Assembly: GCA_016840085.1 (NCBI GenBank)
Contig: JAEOTA010000085.1
Span: forward strand, 17,441 to 81,440
Direction: 5' to 3'
Length of the DNA stretch: 64,000 nucleotides
Source of the DNA: Promethearchaeota archaeon
GTDB lineage: Archaea; Asgardarchaeota; Lokiarchaeia; Sigyniarchaeales; SOKP01
In this document: piece after piece, positions 53,893 to 64,000 of the stretch
Numbering within the stretch: the stretch's first letter is position 1
Layout of the letters: every line of letters starts with the position of its first letter
Notes under the pieces: generated by a model
The model's input: only the letters and a program-made list of their open reading frames with translations
What the model was told of the DNA's origin: nothing
The model's database searches: none
Translations under genes and position numbers: made by a program

Positions 53893-55189
53893 TTTTTTTA
53901 TACCTTACTCCATTTTGAGGTTCAATTGTGCCTTTTAAAAGGGGATCATTAGTTTTCAACATCCAATTAAGTAATTTTTGCCTTAATTCCAGTACAATCT
54001 TTTGATAATTTGAGTTATTAACTAAGTTTTCTTGTTCGTTTGGATCATTTTCAAGATCATAGAGTTCTTCTTCACTTCTTGGCTTTTTGATCTTATCTAT
54101 TAAAAATTTTCCTGAAAGCCCTCTTTGAATATCAAGCGGCATTTGATATAACGTATCTGAACTTGTAAAATTTCTAATGTACTTATATTTTTCAGTTCTT
54201 ATACTTCGCATTGGGTCATAAATTTCATGAAAAGTTTTTTCTGTATAAATTTCTTTTCTGAAATTTCCAAATTTATTTTCTAGTACTGGTAAAAAAGAAA
54301 TCCCCTCAATATTTCTCGGTTTTTTAGCTCCAACAAGATCCAATAATGTTGGTAAGAGATCAATATTACTTATCATATAATCAATTGATTTTCCCCCACT
54401 AACAAAATCTAACTCTGGACAATTCATAATGAGAGCAATTTTAATTCCTGGATCATATAATGTGCATTTAGCTTTTGGAAATGGGCTCCCATGATCGGTC
54501 GTATATATAAATAAAGTATTTTTTCGCAACCCTACTTTTTGTAAGCAATTAATTATAGTCCCAATTGCTAAATCAACATTATTGATAACTCCATAAAAAA
54601 GTCCAATATCTTCTCTCACCATTTCATCGTCAGGTAAAAATTGCGGAACACTAACAAATTTTGGATCAACAGGATCACTCCATATGACAAATGGACGGTG
54701 ATTTTCAATTGTCCCTATATTTACAAAAAAAGGGTTATCTTCATTTTCTCGTTCTTCGAAGAATTTAAGATATTCATCTTCCATTCTTTTGGTAGAATAC
54801 TTATAATCCTTAACTCTTTTACTAACATAATCATACCCCAATGTTGAAGCATCTTTACTCTCATGTTGTAATCCAAGAAGATACGTATTATAACCATTTT
54901 CTCGTAAATACATTGGCAATGTTTTATTGTTTTCAGGTAAAGTCCATCCGAGATTGACAAGTCCCATTAAACCATTTTGATGGGGATATAAGGATGTCAT
55001 TAAGCTTCCTCTGCTTGGACTACATTGAGGAGCAGTACAAAAATAATTTGTAAACCGTACTCCATTTTCAGCAAGTCTGTCTATATTGGGAGTATAAAGT
55101 GATTTTGTGGTCTGAGGAGTCTCATAACATCCTAAAAATTGGCCTTGATCATGTGTTATGAATAAAATTATGTTTGGTTTTTCTTTCAA
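53879..55189 (-). CDS. Cys-type sulfatase (arylsulfatase family), no signal peptide
   Basis: PNIILFITHDQG and the formylglycine motif CTAPQCSPSRGSLMTS. Confidence 0.85.
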   Translation of the reverse strand: MKEKPNIILFITHDQGQFLGCYETPQTTKSLYTPNIDRLAENGVRFTNYFCTAPQCSPSRGSLMTSLYPHQNGLMGLVNLGWTLPENNKTLPMYLRENGYNTYLLGLQHESKDASTLGYDYVSKRVKDYKYSTKRMEDEYLKFFEERENEDNPFFVNIGTIENHRPFVIWSDPVDPKFVSVPQFLPDDEMVREDIGLFYGVINNVDLAIGTIINCLQKVGLRKNTLFIYTTDHGSPFPKAKCTLYDPGIKIALIMNCPELDFVSGGKSIDYMISNIDLLPTLLDLVGAKKPRNIEGISFLPVLENKFGNFRKEIYTEKTFHEIYDPMRSIRTEKYKYIRNFTSSDTLYQMPLDIQRGLSGKFLIDKIKKPRSEEELYDLENDPNEQENLVNNSNYQKIVLELRQKLLNWMLKTNDPLLKGTIEPQNGVRYKKNENN

Positions 55190-55223
55190 GATATTTCAAA
55201 TAATAAAAAATTGTTTAAAAATT

Positions 55224-56201
55224 CTATTTTAATTCAATCAGAATCTTGATAAAATCTCTTTCACCAGGCTTTAAAAATGATTCAAAAGTTTCTTGAACAT
55301 CCTTTAAAGGTATAACTTTGGAGATAAATTTTGCTGCATCAATTTTGTTTTGACCAAATAGTTCAATTGTAGAAAGGATGTCATTACGATCATGTCCTAG
55401 GCACCCTTTTAAGCAAATTTCTTTATTAATGATTTGAAATGTAGGAATAGACATACCTTTTTGAATTCCTTCCAATAATAATGTTCCACCTCTTTGAATT
55501 AAATCAATTGCCATCCTTAAAGTGTCTTCACTTCCTACACAATCAAAAACAATAGAAGGTTGCCCATGTGTCTTTACAAATTTCTTTATTTTAGCTTTAC
55601 TTGGGGGAAAAGCATCAATCGCACCAAATTCCTTTGCTTTTTTCCTTAAAAATTCATGAGGTTCTATCACAATTACATATTCAGGACTTTTTTCACTTAA
55701 CAAAGTGACTAGAAAAGCTAATCCAATATTTCCTCCTCCAATGACCATGATCCTCTGGTTATTTTCTATCTTTGACATTCTTATAGCTCTTATTATATTA
55801 GCAAATGATTCAATCATAACAGCTTCTTTTATAGAAATCGATTTGGGGGGATAAAATATATTACTCCTTCGCACTTTCACATACTCTGCAAATCCACCAT
55901 TTTCAAATATTCCTAATCCTTTTAATTCTCCCATAACATATTGCGAAACATTCATAGCAATTACTTTATCACCAACATTAACATCTTTAATATTCTCACC
56001 TATTTCTACTATCTCTCCAGAAATCTCATGCCCCATTACTAAGGGAACTTGATACATCTTATATTTAAAATTGGTAACATCGCTTCCACATATTCCACAG
56101 AAATGTACTCTAACCAGAACATCGTCCGGACCAGGAACTGGTTTAGGATAATCTTCCTTATACACTATTTTTTGAATATCTTCAAAAACCGCTGCTTTCA
56201 C
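55224..56201 (-). CDS. Zinc-dependent medium-chain alcohol/polyol dehydrogenase
   Basis: CGICGSD, GHEISGEIVEIG, Rossmann VIGGGNIGL. Confidence 0.85.
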   Translation of the reverse strand: MKAAVFEDIQKIVYKEDYPKPVPGPDDVLVRVHFCGICGSDVTNFKYKMYQVPLVMGHEISGEIVEIGENIKDVNVGDKVIAMNVSQYVMGELKGLGIFENGGFAEYVKVRRSNIFYPPKSISIKEAVMIESFANIIRAIRMSKIENNQRIMVIGGGNIGLAFLVTLLSEKSPEYVIVIEPHEFLRKKAKEFGAIDAFPPSKAKIKKFVKTHGQPSIVFDCVGSEDTLRMAIDLIQRGGTLLLEGIQKGMSIPTFQIINKEICLKGCLGHDRNDILSTIELFGQNKIDAAKFISKVIPLKDVQETFESFLKPGERDFIKILIELK

Positions 56202-56351
56202 AATATTTTGAACTTTTAAATTTGATTTCTATTAAACCAAAAAAATCAATTAATAATTTCTCATAAAAATATATAATACTTATTTTATAGTGATTTATAT
56301 AAAATTAGATTTATGATGAATATTAGAAAAAGAAAATTTATTTAGAGCATT

Positions 56352-56594
56352 ATGAAGCCTCCTATATATTGCATATGTGATGAAAAATTAAAAGATATGA
56401 ATGACGGTGGTTTGATAGATTTTAAGAAACGGCTTTCTGATATTGAATGGGAAAAACATATGGAAAAAATTAAAGGTGTTGGACATCCTCCATATGCGGA
56501 ATGGTTCTGTAAAAAACATTATGATAAAGCAAGTGAATTAAAACACTTACCTATTGACAAAGCTTTAAAAATTTTAATGTCTGAAGGAACTTAA
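56352..56594 (+). CDS. Small Cys/His-containing hypothetical protein
   Basis: 80 aa. YCIC...WFCKKHY motif similar to the 2910..3140 ORF. The last 7 codons lie inside the mvhD-remnant repeat. Confidence 0.4.
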   Translation: MKPPIYCICDEKLKDMNDGGLIDFKKRLSDIEWEKHMEKIKGVGHPPYAEWFCKKHYDKASELKHLPIDKALKILMSEGT

Positions 56595-56669
56595 TTCTTT
56601 AATTTGGTTAGTAAACTCTGTAATTATCTCAGCAAATCTCTTCCCTTCAGATCCGCTAATTCATTCTAA
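56574..56669 (-). pseudogene. Remnant copy of the mvhD 3' end with an in-frame TGA
   Basis: Reverse translation gives [30 protein letters not shown]. Intact mvhD has [31 protein letters not shown]. 95-bp direct repeat with 57588..57682, offset 1013 bp. Confidence 0.75.
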
Positions 56670-56730
56670 TTATATTTACTTAATTAATATAAATTTAGTA
56701 ATATCCAGTATCTCCATCACTATTATAATT

Positions 56731-57256
56731 TTAAATCCTTAGCTTTTTCCAATAAAATGGTATAGTACTTTTTTTCCATCCATAAACCCATCTCAATCAT
56801 TTTATCAAGTAATTCATGGAATTCTTTATAATTTTTCAAGATTCTTTTTTCAAGAGCTTCTAAGAGAATTTCAGTGCTCCATTTCGTATTGATACTTTTT
56901 GATTCAGCAATTAACCTGGCTCTCTTATCGTTTACAAGTAATAAGTCAGCATTTAGCTCTAAACATAGAGCTATGGCATATGCCTCTCCGCGCCCTAATT
57001 ATTTTGTAAGATTTAAAGCAATTTCATGAGATTTATCTGATTCCGGGTCTTTAACGATAAGCCATCCTTCTTCTTTAGCATTTAATTCATATTTTATATC
57101 TTGTGGGATTTCCTCATCTAGTTTAGAAAATGGATGTATTAATTCTTCCCAAACAGCATTATGAATGAATACTGTCGAATATAATTCTTTTAATAGAAAT
57201 AATTTCTCAATTTTAGCAAAAAATATTAAAGGAGAGGTATCAGAAATAACTATCAT
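56731..57256 (-). pseudogene. DUF3368-type PIN-domain toxin interrupted by an in-frame TAA (56999-57001)
   Basis: MIVISDTSPLIFFAKIEKLFLLKELY...HEIALNLTK*LGRGEAYAIALCLELNADLLLVNDKRARLIAESKSINTKWSTEILLEA..., all in one frame. Confidence 0.7.
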
Positions 57257-57267
57257 ATAAATCAGTT

Positions 57268-57504
57268 TTATATATGAACAGGTATTCTGGCTTTTGTACG
57301 AATCAATTCTAACTCTCGATATGAAATTCGTGCTATTTCAGAAGCTTTACCAAATGATATATCTCCTCGCATATATAATTCTAAAGCATCTTGAATAGCC
57401 TCTGGAAGTGATCTTATATATTCCCAATCTATAGGTTTAATTAAATCCTTTTGATTGAACCAATATTGACTTAAATCACTGTTCTGTACCATATTATATC
57501 TCAT
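57268..57504 (-). CDS. UPF0175-family antitoxin
   Basis: ALELYMRGDISFGKASEIARISYRELELIRTKARIP. Sits 11 nt upstream of the PIN gene. Confidence 0.7.
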   Translation of the reverse strand: MRYNMVQNSDLSQYWFNQKDLIKPIDWEYIRSLPEAIQDALELYMRGDISFGKASEIARISYRELELIRTKARIPVHI

Positions 57505-57562
57505 TGATTCTTATTCAATAATTTAAAGGAAATATTCATATAAAATTTTATTGGCTTAAATA

Positions 57563-58033
57563 TTAACTGTTATCTTCTATACTCTTATAATGTCTGAAGG
57601 GACCTAATTCTTTAATTTGGTTAGTAAATTCTGTGATTACTTCAGCAAATCTCTTTCCTTCAGATGCACTGACCCATTCTAAACGCACCCTTTTTGGATC
57701 TACTCCTAATTGTTTAATCAGAATATTATGTAATCTCTCGAATCGTTCCTGTGTATATTCATTTCCAGTAATATAATGACAATCTCCAATATGACATCCA
57801 CTTACTAGAACTCCATCAGCGCCATTTTTTAAAGCTTTTAGGACAAATGATGGATCTACTCTTCCAGAGCACATTACCCTAATGATTCGAATATTCGGAG
57901 GGTATTGAAACCGTGAGACTCCTGCTAAATCTGCTCCTGCATAACTGCACCAGTTACAACAAAAAACTAAAATATGAGGTTCGAATTCTTCTTTTTTTAC
58001 TTTTTTTCTTGATCGTGACATTTTCTTATTCAC
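57563..58033 (-). CDS. mvhD: Methyl-viologen-reducing hydrogenase delta subunit
   Basis: [37 protein letters not shown]. Overlaps the hdrA stop by 8 nt. Confidence 0.85.
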
Positions 58034-61000
58034 CTTTAGAATTAATAGTTGCTTTTTCTAATAAATAGGAATCTATCATTGTATTGATCTGGTCAAAATC
58101 ATAATGTTTTACTATTATTGCACCTACAGGGCAAGTTGCAGCACAAGTTCCACAACCTTTGCACACAGCTGCATTTATATTTGATTTCTTCACTATGATG
58201 CTTAGATCTTCAAATTCTTTAGTTATTTCCGTAAGCTGTATTGCTTTATAAGGACAAACCTCCTCACATTTACCACATCCTATACATTTTTCTTCTAAAA
58301 CCTCAGCTACCAATCCAGATGTGGTAATTTTATCAGCACTTAAAAATCTACTTGCTCTGCCCGCTGCACCGTTAGCTTGTGAAATTGAATCTTGAATATT
58401 TTTCGGCCACTGAGCACAACCACATAAGAAAATCCCATCTGTAGCAAAATCTAAGGGTCTTAATTTAACATGAGCTTCTAAGAAGAAACCGTTTTTATCC
58501 AATGGAACTTTCAGCATCATTGCTAATTCTTTAAGATTGTCAGCTGGAATCATGGGTGTTGAAAGTATTACCAAATCTGTTTCAAATTCAATATTATCTT
58601 TCAAATTAGTATCAAATACTTTTATTTCAAACTTTTCTGAGCTTCTTTTTTTCTTTTTTACTACTGGCAGATTATCTAGGTCATATCTTAGAAAAATTGC
58701 ATCTTGTCTACGTTCACGATAAAATTCCTCAAAATATTTCTTAGCCATTTGCAAATCCCTATAAATCACAACTATTTCTAACTCAGGCTTCTTTTCTTTT
58801 AAGATTCTAATGTTTTTAATTGAATTCGCGCAACATATATTAGAACAGTAAGTAATTCCTTCGTTTTGTCTAGCATTTACGCATAAAATCATTGTTATTC
58901 GATTTATATTTTCTAACCATGATTTATCCTTGCTTTTTAATTTCTGTTCTAACTCCAATTGGGTTATTACATTATTATTTTTATCGTTATAGCCAAAAAG
59001 ACCATTAGGTTTATACTCTTGACCACCAGTAGCAACTATGATAGTTCCAATTTTTAACTCATGGATTTCGTTATTTGAATCATTTAATATCACGTCATAA
59101 TTTCCAACATACCCTTTAATACTCTTAATTTCAGCATTAAAGAAGGTTTGGATGTTATTGTTTTTTTCTATCTTTTCTTTTGTTTCATTTAATAAATCTA
59201 ACGCATTTTTATGAACTGGATACAATACATTTAAAAATCTTAGGTTTCCCCCTAATTCACTTTCTTTTTCAACAATAATAGTTTTAAATCCTTGATTAGC
59301 AGTATTTAATGCAGCAGTCATTCCCGAAATACCTCCACCAATAATTAATGCTGTGTGTGTAATATCTATTTTATCTTCCTTTTGTGGTTTTAATAATCTT
59401 GATTTAGCAACATGCATTCGAATTAAATCCATGGCTTTTTCTGTAGCTGCTTCTTTTTCTTTCATATGAACCCATGAACATTGATCTCGAATATTTACAA
59501 GTTCAAAGAGATATTTGTTTAAACCCGCTTCCTGACATGTTTCTTGAAATAAGGATTCATGGGTTCTAGGAGTACAAGACGCAACAATAAACCTATTTAA
59601 ATCATATTCATCAATTAATTCTTTAATCCTTATTTGGGAATCAGGTGAACAAGAGTATAGATTATCTTCACACAACACTACATTTGGGAGGGTTTTTACG
59701 TATTCTACAACTTTAGGGACATCTACATAATTTCCTATATTAATTCCACAATGACAAACCATTACACCTATTCTTGGTTCATCTGTAATTTTAACCTCTT
59801 TTTCTGGTATATCAAATATTTTCTCTTGTATTTTTGTGAATTTAACAGCATTTAGTAACTCGGCAATTTGCGCAGCCACCCCGCTGGCATCTGCAACTGT
59901 CTCAGGGATGTCCATTGGGCCTTGGCAGAATCCACATAAGTAAATTCCTTCTCTTGTTGACTTTAATTTATTAAAATATGATTTTTCTTGGAAGAAATTG
60001 TATTTATCCAATTCAATACCTAACACTTCTCCTAACTCATTAACTCCTTTTGACGGAACTAGAGGTGAAGCTAAAACTACTAAATTTGCACGGAAATCCT
60101 TAAATTCACCTGTCTTTAAATCTTCATAATGTATGAGTAAATCATTTGTTGCAGGATTTTCTTCGATGGTACTGATCTTAGATTGGAAATATTGTACTCC
60201 ATATTCTTCTTGTGCTCTTTGTGTGAATTCGTAAAAATTTTTACCATATGCGCGAATATCATGTCGAAATATATAACATTTAGAATTTTCAGAATGCTCT
60301 TGAGTAATAATTGCTTGTTTTGCAGTGTATGTGCAACAAACACTAGAACAATAAGGTACATTTTCATGAAGATCTCTAGAACCCGCACATTGAACGAAAG
60401 CGATTACCTCAGGTTCTTCTTCATCGCTTAACCGCATAACATGCCCGCTAAATGGTCCAGATGCGCATAATATTCTTTCATATTCAAGAGCACTTACTAC
60501 ATTTTCGTATCGATAACCCCATCTTGAAGATAATTTTTCAGCAGGCATCTGAAAACCTGTAGCAACTACCACAGCTCCAACTTTAATCTCAAATTCTTGT
60601 GACTTCTGCTCAAAATCTATTGCATCAGCAGAGCAAGCTTTTTTACATACTTGACATACGCCCTTCGTTAAATATAAACACATTTCTGGATCAATTAAAT
60701 AAATAGGGGGTACTGCTTGAGGAAAAGGAATATATATGGATTTTCTTGTACCAATATTCATTTCAAAAGGATTTGGAGCCATTATTTTTGGGCACTTGTT
60801 TGAACATTCTCCACATCCCTTACACTTTGTTTCATCAACATATCGAGGTTTCTTTAGAATTTTGGCAGTAAAATTACCAGGTTCTCCATCAATTTTAAGA
60901 ACTTCATGATATGTCATTAATTCAATATTAGGATTACGAAAGACTTCAACCATTTTAGGGGCGAGGATGCATAATGAACAATCTAATGTTGGAAAAGTTT

Positions 61001-61136
61001 TATCCAATTGAGCCATTCTTCCCCCAATTGAAGGTGACTTTTCTACTAAATAAACTTTAAATCCTAATTCCGTTAGATCAAGTGAAATTTGAATTCCAGC
61101 TATACCTCCTCCAATTACTAAAACTGAACCTTCCAT
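58026..61136 (-). CDS. hdrA: Tandem-fused heterodisulfide reductase subunit A (two HdrA-like modules, 1036 aa)
   Basis: Module 1: [37 protein letters not shown], inserted ferredoxin. Module 2: [64 protein letters not shown]. Confidence 0.85.
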
Positions 61137-62434
61137 TATTTTACCTCCTCCACTTTTTCACTTGATTCCACAATATTAATCAAATCCACTAAAAATTCAG
61201 AAAAATCTACTATTTCAATTGAAGAGATATCTTCATAATCTTCTTGTAAACATGATAAGTGCATTTTACACTTTGGACATGAGGTCACCATTATTTCTCC
61301 AGCTTCTTTTGCTTCCAATAGTTTCTTGTAGCGTAACGCTTTTGAGCGATCATTACAATTCATCCAAGAACTCACACCACAGCATAAAGAATCTGTTTTA
61401 TTATGTACCATTTCTTTAAATTCATAACCCAATTCTTTTAAATAAGAGAAAATTTCACGTACATTTTCTATAATATCACTTTCTTTTGGTAAAAATCTGC
61501 TTAGACGACAAGGATCATGATAAGTGAATTGAATAGATTCCTTTTTATCACTTGGATTTTTAAATTCTATCTTATTTGCTTTCCAATTTTCGTAAATATA
61601 TTCTATTAAATGTTTAACTTCAAATTTTTTGTTAAAATCTTCAAATAGCTTTTGATACTCCACTTTAAATGTTCGATAGCATTCAGCACATGCAGTTATT
61701 ATCGTTGAAATCCCTGCTTTTTCAAACTTATCCAAATTCTTTTTTGCTAAATTGATGAAAGCATTAAGCTTCCCTTGACCCCAATAGAGATCATGACCAC
61801 AGCAAATTTCGTCTTTAAGGACTACAATTGGTTCTTTTTCTATCTGGCAAATGATTTTTAAGGTGCTTTCTGCTATCGAATCTGAATTTTTAAATTCAAA
61901 ATTAAAAAAGGGTAAACATCCAACATAATACATAATAGTTCCGTGTTCTGAAATCTTACATCCTTTGGGTACCCAATCAAGAGATCTATTTGGCTCTATA
62001 TCGGATTCACTCATTATTTCTGAAACTATAGTATATATACCTTTATGAGCAACATATTCATCCGGATTTTGATTATAAGATGTCCGCATTTTATATTTTG
62101 CCATTCTTACAATATCTGCGAAATTTATTCCCTCAGGACAATTTTGAAGACAGGTATTACAAGTTAAACAATCCCATAAAACACCACTCTTGATTATTTT
62201 GTCTTCAAAACCTTCTAATATCATTTGAATAATTCTACTAGGTTCAAAAGTTTGAACCTTACTGAGTTGACATACCCCACTACAGCGAACACATTGATAA
62301 CATCGATATAATAATTTTCTTATATCTGGTTCATAAATTTTTTCAAGATAAGAATTAATATCATCGCTGAGTTCTTCTGAATCATCCGCTTTTTTAGTCT
62401 CAGTAATAATCTTCACTTTTTTTTGGTAATTCAA
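61136..62434 (-). CDS. Fused HdrC-like (2x[4Fe-4S]) / HdrB-like (two CCG domains) protein
   Basis: CYQCVRCSGVCQLS, CLTCNTCLQNCP, then EICCGHDLYWG and SLCCGVSSWMNC. The stop overlaps the hdrA start by 1 nt. Confidence 0.8.
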   Translation of the reverse strand: MNYQKKVKIITETKKADDSEELSDDINSYLEKIYEPDIRKLLYRCYQCVRCSGVCQLSKVQTFEPSRIIQMILEGFEDKIIKSGVLWDCLTCNTCLQNCPEGINFADIVRMAKYKMRTSYNQNPDEYVAHKGIYTIVSEIMSESDIEPNRSLDWVPKGCKISEHGTIMYYVGCLPFFNFEFKNSDSIAESTLKIICQIEKEPIVVLKDEICCGHDLYWGQGKLNAFINLAKKNLDKFEKAGISTIITACAECYRTFKVEYQKLFEDFNKKFEVKHLIEYIYENWKANKIEFKNPSDKKESIQFTYHDPCRLSRFLPKESDIIENVREIFSYLKELGYEFKEMVHNKTDSLCCGVSSWMNCNDRSKALRYKKLLEAKEAGEIMVTSCPKCKMHLSCLQEDYEDISSIEIVDFSEFLVDLINIVESSEKVEEVK

Positions 62435-62567
62435 ATTTTAATAATTTGAACCAATGATGATAAGAAAAAAAAAGGAAATAATTTATTTTTTCTGATTAGA
62501 TTTCATAACTCTATTATCAAATGAGAAAATATAGATATGATAAAGTTATATTCTATTAAGTTTCAGG

Positions 62568-64000
62568 TTACATTGCTAATGTCCTAATCATAGCATTGAT
62601 TTGTTCAAAATCGTAATGTTTAATAGAAATTGCCCCAACTGGACAATTCACTGCACAAGTTCCACATCCTTTGCATAAACCTGAATTTACAGAAATTTTT
62701 TTTATTGGTAGACTTACCTCTTCAAATTCTTTTAGGACGTTTGTAATTTCTATTGCGTTATAGGAACATGCTTCCTCGCATGTTCCACATCCGATACACA
62801 CATCTGGATCTACTTCCGCTATTAATCCAGATGTAGTAATTTCCTCTGCGATTAAAAACCTACATGCTCTTCCTGCTGCACCATTTGCTTGTGATATTGA
62901 ACCTTGTATATTTTTTGGCCAATGAGCACATCCACACAAGAAGATACCATCAGTAGCAAAATCTAATGGTCTTAATTTAACGTGAGCCTCGAGAAAAAAA
63001 CCATTTTTGTCTAGAGGAACCTTGAGCATCTTTGCTAGCTCATCTGAATTGTCAGCTGGAATCATAGGTGTCGATAATACTATTAAATCTGTTTCAAATT
63101 TGATATTATCTTGTAGATTGGTATCAAAAACTTTAATTTCGAACTTACTTGTTCCACTATTGCTCTCTTTAATTGTAGGGGGAGCATCTAAATCATACCT
63201 CAAAAAAATAGCATCTTTTCTTCGTTCACGATAATAACTTTCGAATTCTTTCTTTGCCATCTGAAGATCTCTATAGAGAACTATTAATTTGAGGTCGTGC
63301 TTTAATTCTTTTAGGATGTTAATATTCTTTATAGCACTTTCACAACATATATTTGAACAATATGTTATCCCTTTCTTTTGTCTAGCGTTCACACATAATA
63401 GGGTAGTAATATGATTAAGTTTATCTAACCATGATTTATCTTCATCCTTTAATTTCTGTTCTAGTTGTAATTGTGTAATTACGTTGTGGTTCGTATATCT
63501 ATATTCAAAAAATTCATTAGGTTTTAATTCTTGTCCTCCAGTGGCAACAATAATAGTACCAATTTTTAACTCATGAATCTTATTATCTGAATCAATAAGT
63601 GAAACATTATAATTACCAAGATATCCATTAATATCGTTTAAATTAGAGTTTAAAAAGAGTTGAATGTTCTTATTTTGTTCAACCTTTACTCTGGTTTCGT
63701 TTAATAAGACTGAAGCATCCTCTTGAGTAGGATATAGCATATTTAAGAATCTTAAATTTCCACCTAAATATTTCTCTTTTTCTATAAGATAAACAATAAA
63801 TCCTTGATTAGCGATATTTAATGCAGCAGTCATTCCGGATATTCCTCCACCAATCACCAATGCAGTTTGAGTAATTTTTAATTTCTTTTCTTCTTGTGAT
63901 TTTAATAATCTAGATTTAGCAACTCCCATTCTTATTAAATCAATTGCTTTTTCCGTAGCTAGCTCCTTTTCTTTCATATGTACCCATGAACATTGATCAC
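62568..64000 (-). CDS. hdrA: Second HdrA-like gene, N-terminal part outside the window
   Basis: The frame is open to the window edge (...[24 protein letters not shown]...). About 75% aa identity to module 2 of the 1036-aa HdrA. Confidence 0.85.
   Translation of the reverse strand, partial: DQCSWVHMKEKELATEKAIDLIRMGVAKSRLLKSQEEKKLKITQTALVIGGGISGMTAALNIANQGFIVYLIEKEKYLGGNLRFLNMLYPTQEDASVLLNETRVKVEQNKNIQLFLNSNLNDINGYLGNYNVSLIDSDNKIHELKIGTIIVATGGQELKPNEFFEYRYTNHNVITQLQLEQKLKDEDKSWLDKLNHITTLLCVNARQKKGITYCSNICCESAIKNINILKELKHDLKLIVLYRDLQMAKKEFESYYRERRKDAIFLRYDLDAPPTIKESNSGTSKFEIKVFDTNLQDNIKFETDLIVLSTPMIPADNSDELAKMLKVPLDKNGFFLEAHVKLRPLDFATDGIFLCGCAHWPKNIQGSISQANGAAGRACRFLIAEEITTSGLIAEVDPDVCIGCGTCEEACSYNAIEITNVLKEFEEVSLPIKKISVNSGLCKGCGTCAVNCPVGAISIKHYDFEQINAMIRTLAM

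Follow-up and report, generated by a model that had tools for sequence, protein, structure and literature searches.

A tandem HdrA in Asgard archaea: two complementary modules in one chain, encoded with a fused HdrCB and an MvhD-like adaptor

No known prokaryotes are more closely related to eukaryotes than the Asgard archaea, whose energy metabolism is at the core of models of eukaryogenesis that build on hydrogen or electron syntrophy. In the literature on Asgard metabolism, "HdrABC" (heterodisulfide reductase, Hdr) is named generically and the heterodisulfide left unidentified (e.g., PMC11291895). The window analyzed here, a stretch of 64,000 nucleotides (nt) from a Promethearchaeota archaeon (G000:C82:17441-81440), raises a specific question: what is an HdrA of 1036 amino acids (aa) that carries two HdrA modules in one open reading frame (ORF) and is encoded between a fused HdrC/HdrB (HdrCB) and an MvhD-like protein? 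Judged from its sequence, the protein appears to join two ancient, complementary HdrA paralogues into a single-chain heterodimer, a design like that of BamE, and we consider it quite probable that it is a genuine fused type II/BamE-like HdrA that forms a bifurcation-type module with HdrCB and MvhD.

The account begins with what was observed directly (gene structure, the content of domains and ligands, conservation and synteny). Gene and domain calls were based on an ORF listing of the window, on Pfam profiles and on phmmer searches against PDB sequences. The 1036-aa protein matches the HdrA of M. thermolithotrophicus (5odc_A) with E=1e-198, and it does so in three permuted stretches: residues 5-375 correspond to HdrA 146-511, residues 452-605 to HdrA 2-155 (184 bits) and residues 850-1022 to HdrA 483-647. 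Pfam places two separate flavin adenine dinucleotide (FAD)/Rossmann regions (Pyr_redox_2/FAD families) at residues ~4-48 and 597-742, together with ferredoxin motifs. The modules were aligned by MAFFT to 5ODC numbering; the 5ODC sequence was rebuilt from the phmmer alignment and its numbering verified at C194, C197, E356, K409 and C386/399/403/404. The gene and its parts are as follows.

58026..61136, (-) strand: tandem ("type II") hdrA, 1036 aa, without an internal stop and without TGA
59856..61136, (-) strand: module 1, residues 1-427 (= HdrA 142-571), a thioredoxin-reductase-like (TrxR) FAD domain, from the MAFFT alignment to 5ODC
60612..60851, (-) strand: inserted ferredoxin of module 1, residues 96-175, 2x[4Fe-4S], its 8 Cys (C105...C168) equivalent to 5ODC C246-C303
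59781..59855, (-) strand: inter-module linker, residues 428-452 (25 residues), the least conserved internal stretch
59367..59780, (-) strand: N-terminal cluster domain of module 2, residues 453-590 (= HdrA 1-140), from phmmer and the alignment
58332..59366, (-) strand: FAD domain of module 2, residues 591-935, with GxGxxG, C752/C764/C768/C769, E730 and K774 kept
58101..58331, (-) strand: C-terminal ferredoxin of module 2, residues 936-1012, 2x[4Fe-4S], all 8 Cys present

Module 1 carries GxGxxG, the cysteine pair C53/C56 (= C194/C197), the [4Fe-4S] ligands C250/C263/C267/C268, E220 (= E356) and K273 (= K409), and has neither an N-terminal domain nor a C-terminal ferredoxin. Module 2 (residues 453-1036 = HdrA 1-235 + 311-647) has the N-terminal domain, with Cys 461, 463, 496, 521 and 553 (= HdrA 11, 13, 46, 71 and 103), and lacks both the C194/C197 pair and the insert (residues 236-310). 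The hallmark of the HdrA family (a TrxR-like FAD domain with GxGxxG, E356/K409 and C386/C399/C403/C404) is present in both modules. The canonical single-chain layout of about 650 aa, with all four parts in each subunit of a homodimer, was not found in this protein, its parts being spread over two fused, permuted modules. The original prediction had described just such a 1036-aa ORF, with a first module made up of an FAD domain, Cys pair and inserted ferredoxin and a second made up of an N-domain, an FAD domain without pair or insert, and C-terminal ferredoxins; the ORF listing, phmmer and the 5ODC alignment bear this description out in each part. Its phrase for the whole, a "covalent asymmetric pseudo-dimer," is an idea already published and is supported here by phmmer, the alignment and the structure prediction.

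The cofactor ligands and the Lys/Glu residues of both modules are invariant across 43 relatives of 49-95% identity, and the FAD domain is better conserved in module 1 (0.82-0.89) than in module 2 (0.75). The chain is predicted to hold 2 FAD and 7 [4Fe-4S] which, with two HdrC clusters added, equals the "2 FAD, 9 [4Fe-4S]" tabulated for Moorella MetFV-HdrABC-MvhD. AlphaFold2, run on the alignment of the 43 relatives, gave a mean predicted local distance difference test (pLDDT) score of 78.3 and a predicted template modeling (pTM) score of 0.81; since the latter amounts to a confident global model, the prediction is that both modules pack into a single body. The top structural match in Foldseek was again an HdrA (5odh_A, E=5e-52), and neither phmmer nor Foldseek found a fused HdrA in the PDB set searched.

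The fusion is not confined to this gene. A scan of species-representative genomes yielded 76 loci, in metagenome-assembled genomes (MAGs) labeled Promethearchaeota and other Asgard lineages, with 97 fused ORFs (95 of them distinct) of 1004-1043 aa by our own ORF annotation; M1 is invariant, as are the cofactor residues. In a survey of 201 genomes sampled across the phylum, 109 had a full-length match (E<=1e-180), including 62 of the 85 genomes of high quality, and 37 of the 59 genera were represented. Further full-length tandem copies occur within the same genome. The place flagged earlier for a check on a missed stop or a frameshift, around 59750-59850, proves to be the linker, which varies (majority frequency 0.66; 4% invariant columns) and is open in 43/43 aligned relatives. 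The fusion is genuine, with a frameshift or missed stop excluded as far as the comparative data reach.

How old is the pair? In a maximum-likelihood tree of FAD cores, the module-1 cores form one clade and the module-2 cores another, both with 100/100 support and with mirrored internal branching. The two cores of one protein share 28-31% identity, and each is 36-49% identical to canonical HdrA. Because the clades mirror each other and the identity between modules is so low, the modules are an ancient, co-evolving heteromeric pair and not the product of a recent internal duplication. Unfused counterparts exist in the same genome, as pairs of 431 + 555 aa on C46 and 434 + 569 aa on C83 with the same complementarity as the fused halves, which supports the view that heterodimer and fusion are equivalent arrangements. 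Since these split pairs fall between clades of fused proteins in the FAD-core tree, fusion or fission would have occurred more than once. The genes of the C46 pair (L015 4699-7665 (+) = C46:74698-77664) lie in the same frame, with a TAA and one codon before the ATG, and in two further genomes (L094 and L095; G171, and G008, which belongs to the same genus) the orthologous genes are likewise divided by an in-frame TAA, with spacers of different lengths. These junctions could be the footprint of a recent fission or fusion, and programmed read-through at the TAA may yield both forms. In two other Asgard MAGs (L091 and L092) four tandem HdrA genes stand in a row, in the order FrhB-FrhB-HdrCB-T1016-MvhD(265-273 aa)-T1013-MvhD-T1026-HdrCB-T1035-MvhD, which suggests that the T1036/T1026/T1016 subfamily expanded through local duplication.

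The tandem hdrA is flanked by the following features.

57563..58033, (-) strand: mvhD-like gene, 156 aa, start GTG 58033, for the [2Fe-2S] adaptor subunit; final gene of the cluster
61136..62434, (-) strand: fused hdrC/hdrB (HdrD-like or BamD-like), 432 aa, start TTG, Pfam CCG x2 + Fer4_8
62435..62567, (-) strand: AT-rich intergenic spacer, 133 nt, with an oligo-T run (sequence read directly), separating the 1026-aa hdrA from hdrCB
62568..64000, (-) strand: 3' part of a second tandem hdrA (module 2 from ...DQCSWVH on), open at the window edge

In the 432-aa protein, an HdrC-type 2x[4Fe-4S] part precedes two CCG domains (Pfam CCG, E=9e-21); HdrC chains match residues 33-116 of the protein and HdrB chains residues 266-402. 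A motif scan found two CxxCxxCxxxC motifs (C45-C55 and C89-C99), and there are two complete CCG motifs, C173/C211/C212/C249/C252 and C309/C351/C352/C386/C389. These results agree with the earlier claim that HdrC and HdrB are fused in one ORF between two HdrA genes. The start could be off by a few codons, orthologues being mostly 426 aa long. Nine of the ten CCG cysteines are kept in 55/55 relatives and C252 in 44/55; because all ten are kept in this protein, a disulfide site in HdrCB is plausible. The 156-aa protein belongs to FlpD/MvhD (Pfam PF02662, E=3.8e-58), with Cys at positions 25, 26, 29, 55, 80 and 85; an alternative start at ATG 58021, giving 152 aa, is possible, and its orthologues (144-149 aa) come after the tandem HdrA in nearly all related loci. 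The three genes hdrCB, tandem hdrA and mvhD are translationally coupled, with a stop/start overlap (TAATG) between hdrCB and the 1036-aa hdrA and an 8-nt overlap of the stop of the latter with mvhD. The spacer at 62435..62567 may separate the transcription of the upstream tandem hdrA from that of this triad.

The wiring of the triad, its bifurcation, its donor and its substrate we infer, the wiring by homology to the structures of HdrA and BamE. Electrons leave the FAD of HdrA in two ways, by the cluster of the TrxR domain to HdrC/B and by the N-domain cluster (with Cys197 from the partner chain) to the inserted ferredoxin (PMC9012536; PMC13518236). In BamE, "a fused HdrA dimer" of the Geobacter metallireducens class II benzoyl-CoA reductase that was resolved by cryo-electron microscopy, the FAD of the N-terminal TrxR1 bifurcates, with Lys280 and Cys59-Cys62, while the second FAD (with Gln768) lies off the branch point; electrons come in by the C-terminal ferredoxin and leave at low potential by the inserted one, BamD is an HdrBC fusion that takes the high-potential electron, and BamF is an MvhD-like adaptor (bioRxiv preprint 10.64898/2026.04.10.717634). 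Because the triad shares the parts and order of BamDEF, and because module 1 has K273 and C53/C56, the module-1 flavin would be the bifurcating one. Module 1 would then bring the flavin site with all three branches, and module 2 the N-domain, in which C56 of module 1 would complete the [4Fe-4S] in trans, together with the C-terminal ferredoxin on which MvhD would dock. Electrons would enter from the [2Fe-2S] of MvhD by way of the two C-terminal [4Fe-4S] of module 2 to the module-1 FAD (K273, E220, C53/C56). The high-potential electron would pass through the module-1 [4Fe-4S] (C250/263/267/268) to the two cubanes of HdrCB and on to two non-cubane clusters for disulfide reduction; the low-potential electron would pass through the N-domain cluster to the two clusters of the inserted ferredoxin and then to ferredoxin or a polyferredoxin. 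Like its counterpart in BamE, the flavin of module 2 probably sits away from the branching point, though its retained Lys/Glu pair allows for other roles.

One alternative is that both flavins are catalytic, either in two coupled bifurcation/confurcation events or with the module-2 flavin as a built-in entry for a hydride carrier (F420H2, NAD(P)H); the protein could then no longer count as a one-site pseudo-dimer. In favor of this, K774, E730 and the neighboring [4Fe-4S] ligands of module 2 are invariant in the 43 relatives, two possible bifurcation reactions have been proposed for type II HdrA (PMC12054007), and the HdrA of Moorella/Sporomusa oxidizes NADH without a dedicated NADH subunit (the Moorella protein, however, has a GltD insert). 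We consider it distinctly unlikely. The second FAD of BamE, the sole solved fused HdrA, is off the branch point and was judged structural; module 2 lacks a low-potential exit of its own, with neither Cys pair nor insert nor partner N-domain, and is less conserved than module 1; and for F420 dedicated FrhB genes exist.

It is also conceivable, if very improbable, that the chain does not bifurcate at all but simply connects, in a Qmo-like or sHdr-like manner, a donor to the disulfide site of HdrCB (or runs in reverse); the inserted ferredoxin would then do no more than wire it to a bound partner. HdrA homologues of sulfate reducers (QmoAB) and sulfur oxidizers (sHdrA, 6tjr) are not known to bifurcate, the Hdr-type methylenetetrahydrofolate reductase (MTHFR) of Sporomusa showed no ferredoxin or NAD co-reduction in vitro, and the literature names no soluble acceptor for any Asgard Hdr. 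Module 1, however, has the full set of a bifurcating HdrA (K409, E356, C194/C197 and three cluster branches), its core is 45-49% identical to methanogen HdrA as against a structural-alignment identity of 22% to sHdrA, and its architecture is that of BamE, for which bifurcation is proposed in the preprint on structural and biochemical grounds. We give next to no credence to an assembly or sequencing artifact that joined a module-1 gene to a module-2 gene by a lost stop or frameshift, since, although this genome does hold split pairs (C46, C83), one of which (C46, genes in frame with a single TAA between) could be fused by one base change, and has an estimated contamination of 7.6%, the 95 distinct fused proteins come from independent assemblies with up to 95% identity, 109 of the 201 phylum genomes have a full-length match, the paralog 133 nt and one gene upstream is likewise fused, and the linker is open throughout the alignment.

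Several observations weigh against the fused, BamE-like bifurcating HdrA that we favor. The wiring of the Asgard members is transferred from homologues at 36-49% identity, and BamE and Moorella HdrA were compared by their published descriptions; module 2 keeps the Lys/Glu "bifurcation signature" that the second flavin of BamE has lost; and there are two tandem HdrA genes for each hdrCB/mvhD, a ratio that our reading leaves without explanation. Further, and making the donor less certain, the FrhB genes of this genome lie ~9 kb upstream, behind another triad, and one Mvh-type hydrogenase, adjoining a separate hdrCB, is encoded elsewhere in the genome.

The triad is the last part of a cluster of ~18.6 kb (L013 1004-19641 = C82:75004-93641; from window position 57563 to past 64000), whose ten genes are all on the (-) strand and are listed here in order.

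1: canonical HdrA, 648 aa, with three in-frame TGA
2: FrhB, 498 aa
3: FrhB, 392 aa
4: HdrCB, 425 aa
5: third tandem HdrA, with an internal TAA
6: MvhD, 143 aa
7: tandem HdrA, 1026 aa
8: HdrCB, 432 aa
9: tandem HdrA, 1036 aa
10: MvhD, 156 aa

Unrelated genes flank the cluster, for an alcohol dehydrogenase and a sulfatase at one end and for an epimerase and an esterase at the other, and between them there is no hydrogenase, Fdh, MetFV or molybdopterin gene. Gene 7 had been taken for an HdrA paralog resembling module 2 at about 75% identity. The identity stands, and extends to the same cofactor residues as in the 1036-aa protein; the restriction to module 2 does not, the full gene being a 1026-aa tandem that continues past the window edge (C82:80011-83088, query 1-1026 covered without stops; ORF L013 6009-9089; to window-equivalent 65648). 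Variants of the cluster are conserved in dozens of Asgard MAGs. The synteny hdrCB-tandem-mvhD is found in most of the 76 loci, commonly with FrhB-FrhB directly before it, and the order T(1026)-HdrCB-T(1035)-MvhD in ~23 loci. The order HdrA(Sec)-FrhB-FrhB-HdrCB-T(about 1028)-MvhD-T, which is both simpler and found more widely, has FrhB directly before the triad. A ratio of two tandem HdrA per HdrCB/MvhD recurs, in the patterns T-CB-T-D and CB-T-D-T.

The third tandem hdrA (L013 10116-13157 (-)) has an in-frame TAA at codon 360 (L013 12078-12080 = C82:86077-86079), which falls midway in the FAD domain of module 1. The genome search lists two TAA for this gene, the other being the terminal stop. 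Its orthologues in L033, L088, L091, L092, L100 and L101 are intact, at 1011-1016 aa. Either the gene became a pseudogene recently or the assembly is in error here; a natural fission was considered and rejected, the internal TAA lying inside the FAD domain and off the module junction. In the HdrA at the head of the cluster (L013 17654-19600 (-) = C82:91653-93599), the three TGA stand at the positions of 5ODC Cys13, Cys71 and Cys197, and a paralog on C44 has two in-frame TGA, at Cys13 and Cys197. HdrA with multiple selenocysteines is known in Lokiarchaeota, where it is reportedly always followed by VhuD, with a shared selenocysteine insertion sequence (SECIS) element (PMC4989117); here, in contrast, it is FrhB that comes next, after a gap of ~590 nt. 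An Rfam scan of 55000-64000 found nothing relevant, and a weak match to Plastid-clpP 5' untranslated region at window 56877-56943 (-), in the spacer that lies downstream of the cluster, was discarded as most likely due to chance in AT-rich DNA (31.6 bits vs. a gathering threshold of 55, E=0.04).

What, then, feeds the triad? A hydrogenase partner in cis was rejected: in agreement with the earlier statement that neither mvhA nor mvhG is in the window, there is no [NiFe] large subunit on the contig, and the sole PF00374 match of the genome is on contig C41. That hydrogenase (L093 7241-11569 (+) = C41:11240-15568) consists of an Oxidored_q6 small subunit of 440 aa and a large subunit of 434 aa, in the arrangement mvhG-mvhA-hdrC-hdrB, with hypD close by and no hdrA or mvhD adjacent; it may borrow HdrA/MvhD from other clusters. 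Since the cluster has two FrhB genes and no hydrogenase genes, F420H2 is the likeliest mid-potential donor or acceptor, an assignment that we make tentatively and with slightly less than even confidence; the distant Mvh-type hydrogenase is another possible donor. The genome has cofD and cofH, with scores above the curated cut-offs, so F420 can be made.

It is tempting to go further and regard the whole cluster as one hydrogenase-free, F420H2-driven Hdr super-assembly specific to Lokiarchaeia-type Asgard archaea. Such an assembly would comprise the selenocysteine-containing HdrA, two FrhB, two HdrCB, two MvhD and three single-chain HdrA heterodimers. Its 1026-aa and 1036-aa chains would have to pair, as a "dimer of pseudo-dimers" around HdrCB, and it would have functional second flavins and several coupled bifurcation sites; the 2:1 ratio of tandem HdrA would then reflect stoichiometry and not isoenzymes. 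We regard this proposal as speculative and rather unlikely.

Two further Hdr clusters of this genome combine split and fused HdrA. The one on C46 (L015 3297-13569 (+) = C46:73296-83568) encodes HdrC, HdrB, module 1 (431 aa), module 2 (555 aa), a long MvhD (256 aa), a tandem HdrA fused to MvhD (1153 aa), MetV (DUF5981) and MetF (MTHFR), and by its gene content is an archaeal counterpart of the acetogen MetFV-HdrABC-MvhD, holding both split and fused HdrA pairs. The one on C83 (L016 166-14158 (-) = C83:181165-195157) encodes HdrC, HdrB, FrhB, module 1 (434 aa), module 2 (569 aa), a long MvhD (253 aa), a tandem HdrA (1004 aa), MvhD, an FrhB-like protein, a Fer4_22 protein, an NfnA/AsrB-like FAD/NAD protein and FrhB. 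Both clusters arrange a split pair, a long MvhD, a fused tandem and an MvhD in this order.

A literature search found no description of fused HdrAs, or of an FrhB-linked cluster, in Asgard archaea. The architecture and the idea of an HdrA that is its own heterodimeric partner are already published; the locus is a well-preserved Asgard example and not a new kind of enzyme. About three quarters of the good-quality Asgard genomes carry such putative single-chain HdrA heterodimers, often in multiple copies and in clusters with FrhB but without hydrogenase genes. What emerges is no new enzyme principle but a concrete, testable wiring diagram, with F420H2, not H2, as a likely redox partner.

Among known systems, the HdrA3/A4 proteins of anaerobic methanotrophic archaea (ANME) have been described as fused or tandem HdrAs with complementary loss of Cys197 and the N-domain, Cys197 acting in trans (PMC9012536), and "type II HdrA" as a fusion of A6 and A12 with K409/E356 in both halves, in clusters with HdrBC, MvhD and FdhB (PMC12054007). 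The Asgard protein resembles these type II HdrAs (A3/A4; ANME and Methanosarcinales) in having two TrxR-like FAD domains per chain, the same complementary losses, K409/E356 in both halves, and a cluster with HdrBC, MvhD and an FrhB/FdhB-family protein; its N-half is A6-like (no N-domain, no C-terminal ferredoxin) and its C-half A12-like, a class match made by domain content and description. In the FAD-core tree, the split A6-like/A12-like pairs of the same genome group with the fused halves. The wording of PMC9012536, set beside our protein by description, gives the opposite module order, with the N-domain half first. Differences are the Asgard host, for which no methane metabolism is implied, the fusion of HdrC and HdrB, the absence of a molybdopterin (FdhA-like) gene from the cluster and the presence of up to three or four tandem HdrA per cluster. 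The published type II gene cluster, which includes a non-catalytic molybdopterin protein besides HdrBC, MvhD and FdhB/FrhB, is thus matched in part, by HdrCB, MvhD and two FrhB.

The HdrA of Moorella binds two FAD, and the fused modules of Moorella/Sporomusa have the same order as here (PMC9430772). The proteins of Moorella thermoacetica and Sporomusa ovata (PMC9430772, PMC5861303) share with the Asgard protein the two FAD, the extra TrxR at the N terminus and the neighboring MvhD and HdrCB; in contrast, the N-terminal TrxR of Moorella is interrupted by a GltD domain, and HdrB and HdrC are separate in those bacteria. Neither metV nor metF is present at this locus (cluster and flanks), the metV-metF pair being found in the paralogous cluster on C46. 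Compared with methanogen MvhADG-HdrABC (5ODC, 7BKB, 8RVU), which is 36-49% identical, the Asgard protein retains all cofactor elements for one full bifurcation path, along with MvhD and HdrB/C-type partners; unlike the methanogen (HdrA)2, it would be a one-chain heterodimer, with one input, one ferredoxin output and one Cys197/N-domain cluster per pseudo-dimer, and it differs further in the lack of hydrogenase genes in the cluster, the fusion of HdrC and HdrB, and Cys instead of selenocysteine. The 432-aa protein, for its part, is like the HdrD of HdrDE in combining an HdrC-like 2x[4Fe-4S] part and two CCG domains in one chain, but has no HdrE or membrane partner gene here and is encoded with a soluble HdrA and MvhD.

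The comparison with BamDEF, made by published description, is the closest. Neither the BamBC (tungsten AOR-type) nor the BamGHI (HydBC-like) genes are present in the 18.6-kb cluster or its flanks (no genome-wide search was made). The second flavin of the Asgard protein keeps the invariant Lys K774 and E730 where BamE has Gln768, all ten CCG cysteines are present in HdrCB whereas the distal non-cubane cluster of BamD is degenerate, and MvhD is short (about 150 aa) and of the Cys type whereas BamF is >100 aa longer and has a winged helix-turn-helix domain and a selenocysteine. Set beside these differences are the same parts in the same gene order (HdrBC fusion, fused HdrA, MvhD-like protein), an N-terminal TrxR with Lys and Cys-x-x-Cys, and seven [4Fe-4S] and two FAD in the HdrA-like chain. 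The BamDEF module is the closest structurally solved analogue of the tandem HdrAs of Asgard archaea.

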